DNA from: Octopus vulgaris
Lineage: Eukaryota
Direction: 5' to 3'
Length of the DNA: 64,000 nt
Assembly (NCBI GenBank): GCA_951406725.2
Contig: OX597825.1
Location: 81,716,001 to 81,780,000 of the forward strand
Both the position numbers and the translations under genes were made by a program. Shown here one piece after another: positions 38,399 to 39,833 of the stretch (position 1 is its first letter; each line of letters starts with the position of its first letter). The notes beneath the pieces are model-generated. The model searched no databases and was not told the origin of the DNA. It saw nothing but the letters and a program-made list of their open reading frames with translations.

Positions 38399-38940
38399 GT
38401 CTGTCTGTCCGCTTGTCTATCTATCTATTCATCTATTTGTCTGCTTGACTATCTGCCTGCCAGCCTGCCTGCCAGCCTGCCTGCCTGTTTATCTGTCTTT
38501 CTATCAATTAAGTTTTCTTCCCACCCTTACTACCTCTTACTCACTTCCTTTTTTTACTCCATCTCTCTATTTATCTATCTATCCATGTGTATGTGCCTGC
38601 ATGGGTATTATAAAACTTTCTGTAATACACACAGAGATATATAAACAACATATGCATATACACATATGAAACAAAGGCAGAGTTTCGTATAAACATTCTT
38701 ATATGTATATATATATATATATATAGCAATAATAATTCTCTAAAAGGGATATAGACAGTAACTGCTCGATAACATAAGGGACTAAAGCCATCTGAATATG
38801 GCTAGGGACAGGGCAGGGTGGTGGGGGTGTTACTGTTGCATTTAGCCCCAGGCGAACATCGACGTCACCAGAAAGGCTCGACACCGTCACGGTGCCCTAA
38901 ACCTGCAAAGGGAGGTAATTCCCCGATGAAGCGGAAACCA

Positions 38941-38986
38941 CACACGGACCATGGTTTCAAGGTGTATTGCCTATCATCGGCGTGTG
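38941..38986 (-). ncRNA. Type I hammerhead ribozyme, retrozyme copy 1
   Basis: Reverse complement of 39221-39266. Confidence 0.8.
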
Positions 38987-39220
38987 GTAGGCCTCCGCTT
39001 CCTCGACGAATTCTCACTATGCAGGATTTCTTATATAGATTTTCAAGCAAAATACATTTGCTGATTTCGAAAATCTGTTCGAAAGCAATAATAATTCTCT
39101 AAAAGGGATATAGACAGTAACTGCTCGATAACATAAGGGACTAAAGCCATCTGAATTTGCTTGAAAATCTATATAAGAAATCCTGCATAGTGAGAATTCG
39201 TCGAGGAAGCGGAGGCCTAC

Positions 39221-39266
39221 CACACGCCGATGATAGGCAATACACCTTGAAACCATGGTCCGTGTG
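39221..39266 (+). ncRNA. Type I hammerhead ribozyme, retrozyme copy 2 (predicted cleavage after 39260)
   Basis: cacacg CCGAUGA t-agg-caataca-cct-t GAAAC CAUG GUC cgtgtg. Confidence 0.82.
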
Positions 39267-39579
39267 TGGTTTCCGCTTCATCGGGGAATTACCTCCCTTT
39301 GCAGGTTTAGGGCACCGTGACGGTGTCGAGCCTTTCTGGTGACGTCGATGTTCGCCTGGGGCTAAATGCAACAGTAACACCCCCACCACCCTGCCCTGTC
39401 CCTAGCCATATTCAGATGGCTTTAGTCCCTTATGTTATCGAGCAGTTACTGTCTATATCCCTTTTAGAGAATTATTATTGCTTTCGAACAGATTTTCGAA
39501 ATCAGCAAATGTATTTTGCTTGAAAATCTATATAAGAAATCCTGCATAGTGAGAATTCGTCGAGGAAGCGGAGGCCTAC

Positions 39580-39625
39580 CACACGCCGATGATAGGCAAT
39601 ACACCTTGAAACCATGGTCCGTGTG
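39580..39625 (+). ncRNA. Type I hammerhead ribozyme, retrozyme copy 3 (predicted cleavage after 39619)
   Basis: Same sequence as 39221-39266. Confidence 0.82.
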
Positions 39626-39793
39626 TGGTTTCCGCTTCATCGGGGAATTACCTCCCTTTGCAGGTTTAGGGCACCGTGACGGTGTCGAGCCTTTCTGGTG
39701 ACGTCGATGTTCGCCTGGGGCTAAATGCAACAGTAACACCCCCACCACCCTGCCCTGTCCCTAGCCATATTCAGATGGCTTTAGTCCCTTATG

Positions 39794-39833
<40 letters not shown>

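Follow-up and report, generated by a model that had tools for sequence, protein, structure and literature searches.

We describe here a 359-nt non-coding repeat in a 64,000-nt stretch of the Octopus vulgaris genome (contig OX597825.1; hereafter the window, numbered from its first base). The element in the window is one insertion of a young dispersed family that has several hundred recent copies and a conserved type I hammerhead motif in each unit. It belongs to a known class, the retrozymes without long terminal repeats (non-LTR retrozymes), and is not a new kind of element; its interest lies in the fixed ends of its insertions. The 44-nt one-sided tail, the inverted 5′-truncated arms and the TA targets are the insertion signature of Penelope-like elements (PLEs), and the same genome holds an intact, young PLE with the same end anatomy. 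We consider it very probable that this retrozyme was inserted by PLE machinery and, with somewhat less assurance, likely that it is a non-autonomous element moved in trans by a PLE reverse transcriptase (RT)–endonuclease through the steps proposed below. An earlier prediction made from the window sequence (the original prediction) had already read the element as a non-LTR retrozyme with Penelope-type integration, and hundreds of insertions, a covarying hammerhead and PLE-type ends make this the best reading.

Both arms of the element are exact substrings, with 0 mismatches, of a concatemer of the unit at 39261–39619, in which we number positions from the base after GUC at 39258–39260. The predicted layout, about 1.2 identical units on the minus strand and about 1.8 on the plus strand that meet at 39156 between (TA)n flanks, is thereby borne out to the base. 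Three hammerhead motifs are present at the locus, two of them on the plus strand and 359 nt apart. The arms are pure unit repeats without an LTR-flanked inner region (a tRNA primer site was not searched for). The unit is non-coding, as proposed: the longest open frame in its concatemer spans 98 codons, and no RT or GIY-YIG frame lies in the unit or is joined to it across the 67 loci described below. The features of the locus (window 38706–39832) are as follows.

38706–38725: left (TA)n target remnant
38725–39156, minus strand: inverted arm, 432 nt or 1.20 units, 5′-truncated at unit position 150 and extending to a tailed 3′ end at 222 of the next turn
38725–38768, minus strand: 44-nt tail, unit 179–222, a predicted hairpin found at the left outer end only
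38941–38986, minus strand: type I hammerhead of the minus arm, predicted cut between 38947 and 38946
39156: inversion junction, where the two 5′-truncated arms share 1 base
39156–39797, plus strand: direct arm, 642 nt or 1.79 units, 5′-truncated at unit position 255 and extending to a tail-less 3′ end at 178
39182–39305, plus strand: predicted rod prolonging hammerhead helix I
39221–39266, plus strand: type I hammerhead 1, predicted cut after 39260 (helix I 39221–26/39261–66, core CCGATGA 39227–33, helix II 39235–37/39245–47, palindromic helix III 39252–59)
39261–39619, plus strand: one complete non-coding monomer of 359 nt (47% GC), bounded by two predicted cleavage sites
39439–39482, plus strand: internal copy of the tail hairpin, with feet at unit 178 and 222, where the family's two fixed 3′ ends fall
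39580–39625, plus strand: type I hammerhead 2, predicted cut after 39619, with predicted helix III pairing to hammerhead 1
39795–39832: right (TA)n target remnant

Fixed insertion ends across a dispersed family

A search of the genome (2.8 Gb, 227 contigs) with the unit, named as a check in the original prediction, uncovered a dispersed family, with at least 279 matches among the best 40 of 586 candidates scored, most of them 99–100% identical, arranged in tandem and spread over many contigs. Exact junctions between a unit end and (TA)n number 504 genome-wide for the end at unit position 178 and 435 for that at 222, with 0 in reversed controls. In the 40 closest loci, 32 of the 72 arms end at 178 and 25 at 222, and 5′ ends are scattered from 2 to 359. 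Across 67 loci (labelled L), 114 of 125 arms were counted as terminal, with arms shorter than 40 nt, below 90% identity or cut by the edge of a fetched stretch left out of the counts; 59 of the terminal arms end at 178, 43 at 222 and the remaining 12 no more than 8 nt inside. Every two-armed locus (48/48) pairs one end at 170–178 with one at 213–222, and arrays reach 15 units per arm. A sample not chosen by length, the first 22 178-ends found on contig C1 by exact pattern search, contained 20 two-armed loci, with a median arm of 310 nt and subfamilies up to ~8% divergent. The end points, originally thought to be arbitrary, are therefore so only on the inner (5′) side; on the outer side they lie at two set places in the unit, 178 and 222.

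Of 52 points where two arms meet, 41 show an overlap of 0–4 nt. In 2 of the 67 loci, L043 and L044, the target is not pure (TA)n and direct duplications of it, 12 and 13 bp long, are visible; elsewhere they are masked by (TA)n. The longer arm is the tailed one in 28 of 48 loci and the tail-less one in 20, a split that led us to set aside, as a general rule, a fold-back model that would have one arm copied from its partner at every locus. Such copying may hold for L032 and L044.

Two loci deserve separate mention. About 400 bases from the young 22-unit array of L032 lies a decayed relative (L032:545–774, minus strand) that is ~80% alike over the hammerhead rod and of which the genome search found no close copy. 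The array of L054 has many small indels and a garbled 520-base middle, and is likely to be low-quality assembly.

The insertion marks described for PLEs include a tail, an inverted 5′-truncated copy and a bias towards (TA)n (10.1101/2021.04.23.441226, PMC3846280). Like the endonuclease-containing PLEs as described there (Neptune/Nematis, Naiad), the octopus family shows 5′ truncation, partial tandems, an inverted 5′ copy, a tail at one end (30–40 nt in those elements), (TA)n bias, target duplications near 10 bp and a hammerhead with a palindromic helix III. Unlike them, it has a unit of 359 nt without an open reading frame, up to 15 units per arm and a 44-nt tail, and no homology to PLE terminal repeats was found in the loci searched. 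It is also unlike the plant LTR retrozyme, which carries a type III hammerhead in two LTRs and makes a 4 bp duplication: the octopus motif is type I, the units are in tandem and the duplications are longer.

Metazoan non-LTR retrozymes are described as non-coding tandem units of 150–450 nt with GC below 50%, one type I hammerhead each and no LTR, primer-binding site or polypurine tract (PMC7229834). At the sequence level, the octopus family matches the retrozymes of coral, mussel and axolotl described in that source in every feature, the self-paired circular fold included, and its 359-nt unit compares with 350–390 nt in mussels. It differs from them in its cores (CCGA in the young and UUGA in the older subfamily) and, as far as their insertions are described there, in that nearly all of its own lie in (TA)n as a head-to-head pair of arms whose ends are fixed at 178/222; cleavage and circles, which were demonstrated for those retrozymes, are predicted from sequence here. 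In the open-access literature we found no published cephalopod retrozyme and no PLE-type analysis of retrozyme ends; supplements, which may list cephalopod repeats, Dfam and Repbase lay outside this search.

The hammerhead and its sister families

The motif reads CACACG-CCGATGA-T-AGG-CAATACA-CCT-T-GAA-ACCATGGT-C/CGTGTG and occurs at 39221–39266, at 39580–39625 and, on the minus strand, at 38986–38941. As the original prediction had it, a hammerhead is present in each unit, its core carries a U4C change and a U·U pair lies at the base of helix II. The Rfam search suggested at the time gave no hammerhead match in the window, either at the gathering score or at E ≤ 10, where the only matches were microRNA-type hairpins produced by the inversion and (TA)n. 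The hammerhead call is therefore based on direct reading and on covariation.

The covariation comes from two older sister retrozyme families found near PLE loci (L141–L170 and L171–L200), which have units of ~357 and ~353 nt, gave 2650 and 2159 candidates in the genome search and consist of copies that are ~90% alike. Their units are 51–59% identical to each other and to the 359-nt unit, and their insertions end at equivalent sites, ~170–177 and 215–233 nt after the cleavage sites; the second family (L171–L200) inserts in AT-rich sites and is less bound to (TA)n. Both carry the canonical CUGAUGA core (23/26 and 37/37). Among 12 copies that represent the three families, pairing holds in 94% of the hammerhead cells, and both partners have changed in 9 of the 13 pairs. 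The covariation score beats all slid controls and all 500 shuffles (0/500 reach it), although the shuffle control overstates the covariation because there are three families only and few independent changes. An unguided consensus fold recovers helix I, helix II and the beginning of the rod, and the covariation is confined to one strand. Helix III is palindromic in every family consensus: CATG in the young subfamily, CTAG in the older one (a double change), and TCGA and CGCG in the sisters. The older subfamily has the core UUGAUGA, and one copy (L210) reads UUGAUAA, which is the U3–A8 covariant known from PMC4209133. All three families keep the proposed priming region, which lies opposite the hammerhead, half a turn away in the unit.

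The U4C change and the U·U pair are present as described, but they are not a sign of decay of the window copy, because U4C is shared by 204 of 206 cores in the 40 closest loci, and so is fixed in the young subfamily, and because both are tolerated in other hammerheads. CCGA variants of peach latent mosaic viroid and of a citrus viroid-like RNA are reported to be still self-cleaving (PMC9608096); these carry U4C likewise, but it is rare there and fixed in a whole subfamily here, and the viroid hammerhead helices differ, so that activity is not automatically transferable to the unit. The axolotl ribozyme HHR_Amex2 is described as having a U·U at the base of helix II, yet it cleaves, and does so better as a dimer (PMC7229834).

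Folding predictions agree with two further parts of the original prediction, a rod of ~120 nt that extends helix I and a palindromic helix III that permits dimeric folding. The circular monomer has a predicted fold of −113.3 kcal/mol (z −4.8 against 60 shuffles) that includes the rod; circular folds of the two sister-family units reach z −6.9 and −8.6. The 491-nt dimer region (39180–39670) folds with z −7.6, equalled by 0 of 100 shuffles, and in this prediction helix III at 39252–59 pairs with 39611–18 (p 0.78–0.89) and the helix I strands are exchanged, which is the double-hammerhead arrangement. The 44-nt stretch between the two fixed ends is a predicted hairpin in which 182–186 pair with 217–221 (p >0.8).

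Of 30 recurrent variants, 3 disrupt a confidently predicted pair, compared with 21 of 71 single variants (Fisher p 0.04); for confident pairs alone the numbers are small (recurrent, 4 kept and 3 broken; single, 10 and 21). We take this as a weak indication of within-family selection on the monomer fold. Substitution counts, here and below, exclude L048, L054 and L060, the 8 bases nearest either end of an arm and, in L207, one patch that was misaligned.

The RNA template and the proposed insertion steps

A cut linear monomer primed at 178 or 222 would cap arms at its 5′ end and make their 5′ ends accumulate at position 1. Of the 114 arms, however, 88 pass through the cleavage site, with 241 crossings in all, and only 2 begin at positions 1–3; in the unbiased contig C1 sample, 23 of 41 arms cross it. 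The template was therefore either a circle or an uncut multimer.

Private variants favour a one-unit bottleneck. At multiply covered sites, 68 single-locus variants occur in one unit, 9 in every covering unit (5/5 in L206), 2 in nearly all and 5 in part, and 6 of the 9 unit-filling variants occupy both arms (among them that of L057, 13/13). By our reading of the alignments, the two arms of a locus share the same subfamily haplotype, and the 12–14-unit arrays of L034 and L057 contain 0–2 single-unit changes. At L213, one arm belongs to the older subfamily over its 5′-most 40 bases and to the young one over the remainder, a switch that resembles a jump between two RNA templates. We lean towards a template that was usually a closed circle; this is a preference only, because local growth from a short seed would also yield uniform arrays. 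The rolling reverse transcription of a circle put forward originally is thus consistent with arms that cross the cleavage site and with unit-filling variants, whereas mosaic arrays, discussed below, partly contradict it.

Contigs from other sequencing runs, whose type is a guess, give a hint of transcription. In run X1, a 402-nt contig consists of a 26-nt end, which we take to be a cDNA template-switch adapter, and 376 nt identical to window 39200–39575, on the plus (hammerhead) strand and across the cleavage site. Runs X5 and X14, the latter with another organism label, each contain a 390-nt contig (3 and 8 differences) equal to one turn of a 360-nt variant plus 30; our reading of these as one closed turn plus 30 assumes a word length of 31. 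The stretch is contained in 20 of 24 sequencing-run rows, none recorded as RNA, which provide no evidence either way, and unique flanks are uncovered in four runs and were not used as evidence.

We propose the following steps. In the transcript of a tandem array, neighbouring hammerheads would form a double hammerhead through the palindromic helix III and would be cut after GUC, releasing a 359-nt monomer that a host RtcB-type ligase may close, by analogy with the axolotl and mussel retrozymes. A PLE protein would nick both strands of the (TA)n target, some 12–13 or more bases apart, and the two DNA 3′ ends would prime RT at the two feet of the tail hairpin, positions 178 and 222 respectively, on RNA of the same haplotype. 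Each RT would run back past the cleavage site over a distance that varies at random (up to 15 units; the unbiased sample has a median of 310 nt) and would now and then switch template, and the two cDNAs would join at 0–4 bases of microhomology, giving head-to-head arms with the tail on one side. Some arrays would gain units afterwards by local duplication. That the family records a Penelope RT which primes from both strands of a nicked target at the two feet of the hairpin, on a covalently closed RNA without a 3′ end, and then rolls round it, we offer tentatively, rating it a little below an even chance.

Several observations count against this scheme. In the energy model, the isolated motif is not folded as a hammerhead (helix II probability 0.09), and a small hairpin that ties up C3–C4 is preferred over helix II. 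Isolated motifs of the sister families, with canonical cores, fold alike (helix II probability 0.0–0.37), and none from any family folds as a hammerhead; the core-occupying hairpin might slow cleavage and so keep a circle intact, or the motif might simply be weak. One of nine predicted Xenopus retrozymes is reported to have cleaved in vitro (10.64898/2026.07.22.740005). Five private variants fill their arrays in part, with runs or alternations in L035 (which has a three-unit run), L041, L048, L051 and L053, and these arrays look like later local duplication; L044 carries an identical mosaic in both arms, which a single monomer circle would not give. An excess of 5′ ends at unit 1–35 (21 against 10.9 expected, p 0.002, for an interval chosen among 11; 11 against 3.6 expected in the contig C1 sample) fits a stall at the rod or some linear templates. 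The sequencing-run contigs cannot distinguish a circle from a tandem multimer, that of X1 being one record at depth 10. Finally, neither blastn with the unit nor the three-family profile detected PLE terminal-repeat homology in 40 GIY-YIG loci.

Part of this evidence would suit a different template. The same element and PLE enzyme might use a linear multimer that is uncut or slowly cut, with arrays that grow by local duplication and a young hammerhead that is weak or idle. Mosaic arrays (L032 (15/22), L035, L041, L048, L051 and L053, together with L044, whose two arms carry the mosaic in register) and the weak predicted fold of the motif are in its favour, and local amplification is the model advanced in 10.64898/2026.07.22.740005. 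A linear multimer would, however, need a one-unit bottleneck to produce new variants that mostly sit in one unit (68) or in the whole locus (9 fixed, 2 nearly), often in both arms, and it does not readily account for the 12–14-unit arrays with 0–2 single-unit changes or for a hammerhead palindrome retained within the family through double changes. The mosaics themselves may stem from template jumps (as at L213), gene conversion or assembly polishing. We judge this alternative unlikely.

A more distant possibility, raised in the original prediction, is that the unit is simply the terminal repeat (pLTR) of a longer unseen PLE and that the copies are 5′-truncated insertions of that PLE. The ends, the tail and the hammerhead are pLTR-like, and 24 of 57 Xenopus families are reported to match Repbase elements, mostly PLE termini (10.64898/2026.07.22.740005). 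Yet in the 67 loci the arms run 5′ into further units, the inverted arm or unrelated flank and never into a shared longer sequence, and the three-family profile is unmatched in the termini of the PLE loci examined, which makes this reading highly improbable. Descent of the unit from an old pLTR is possible.

A mobile repeat acting at the DNA level (fold-back, Helitron-like or a satellite spread by recombination), with an incidental hammerhead, is still less credible: inverted arms and TA targets are also found in DNA elements, but fixed 3′ and random 5′ ends, unequal arms, a one-sided tail and 12–13 bp duplications are marks of target-primed reverse transcription, and the hammerhead covaries on one strand. 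An assembly artefact, also considered originally and suggested by identical units that adjoin microsatellites and by the error-rich appearance of L054, is very unlikely in view of hundreds of separate junctions that share one grammar, subfamilies to 8% divergence, the sister families and near-identical units in contigs of other runs, one with another organism label.

A candidate Penelope-like partner

PLEs were earlier proposed as retrozyme partners from shared hammerheads and co-occurrence (PMC7761336), and a vertebrate study infers that PLEs spawn and probably move non-LTR retrozymes (10.64898/2026.07.22.740005). As far as its accessible text goes, that study relies on co-occurrence and pLTR homology in 35 genomes with no mollusc among them, does not analyse insertion ends (the word 'tail' is absent) and favours local amplification; in the octopus, the link is insertion anatomy.

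A GIY-YIG search of the genome, with 150 of 6136 candidates scored, yielded PLE family A, which has a 781-codon frame (RT, then GIY-YIG) that is intact in all 13 copies picked for intactness. Twelve of these 13 are within 4–25 changes of the majority sequence over 2346 bases. All 14 of the 3′ ends seen enter (TA)n, 10 without a tail and 4 with a tail of ~40 nt, and two loci with an inverted arm have one end of each kind. The protein contains a C-x4-C-x2-C linker, a feature linked to Neptune and Nematis in 10.1101/2021.04.23.441226, and no solved structure matches it. The enzyme proposed to move the retrozyme is probably of the Neptune/Nematis type. By age and target, family A is a fair partner candidate. 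That it is the actual partner is somewhat less likely than not: no homologous PLE terminal repeat was found, so the partner remains a guess, and because a repeat survey describes 31 recently active PLE families in Octopus vulgaris (PMC13282606), candidates may be many. Over the PLE loci, the three-family profile retrieved retrozyme copies only, and three PLE families compared with the junctions of the 40 closest loci matched solely as neighbours or insertion targets. A blastn match at L133:6772–6817, first taken as PLE, is a separate sister retrozyme 600 bases past the PLE end.

The PLEs themselves show some further features. The terminal repeat of a second PLE family (L133:5790–5845, also L137 and L104) holds a minimal hammerhead, CCGAAGA-T...T-GAAA, with the U4C and U·U of the young retrozyme, whereas the more divergent L104 has CTGAAGA; no other likeness between this terminal repeat and the unit was found. 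The family A terminal repeat at L121:6566–6610 contains a possible minimal hammerhead of U3–A8 type followed by GAAACATGTTA, with a tentative helix I assignment. At L068:2929–3934 and in the left flank of L202, retrozyme insertions lie within the TA-rich end of a third PLE family and beside the tail end of the second, which probably reflects shared TA targeting. A 708-codon frame at L127:3–2129 (plus strand), beside a family A PLE and on the opposite strand to it, is probably another retroelement.

In the rest of the 64-kb window, no host gene was recognised among the open frames, which were read by eye. About nine degenerate repeats of 32–33 nt, each with a small internal palindrome, lie at 31467–31945, followed by two or three inverted copies, and end close to a (TAT)n run. 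The frames at 24429–24956 (minus strand) and 53405–54058 (plus strand) resemble, by eye only, C-terminal parts of LINE-type retrotransposon proteins.

What moves animal retrozymes and whether circles are copied are described as still open, the repeats lacking a motif that indicates a partner (PMC7761336), and the origin of the PLE tail and inverted arms is likewise given as open (10.1101/2021.04.23.441226). A single genome here offers start sites exact to the base, a substrate of 359 nt and an intact candidate for the enzyme, so that both questions become testable at the bench. The fixed ends link the family to PLE machinery and specify a small substrate for such tests, and builders of RNA-templated insertion tools would take an interest in a retrotransposon enzyme able to write a small circular RNA into (TA)n as concatemers. 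If true, two-foot priming on a circle would name the enzyme that moves animal retrozymes, and the one-sided tail and head-to-head arms of PLEs would amount to two priming sites on one circular template.
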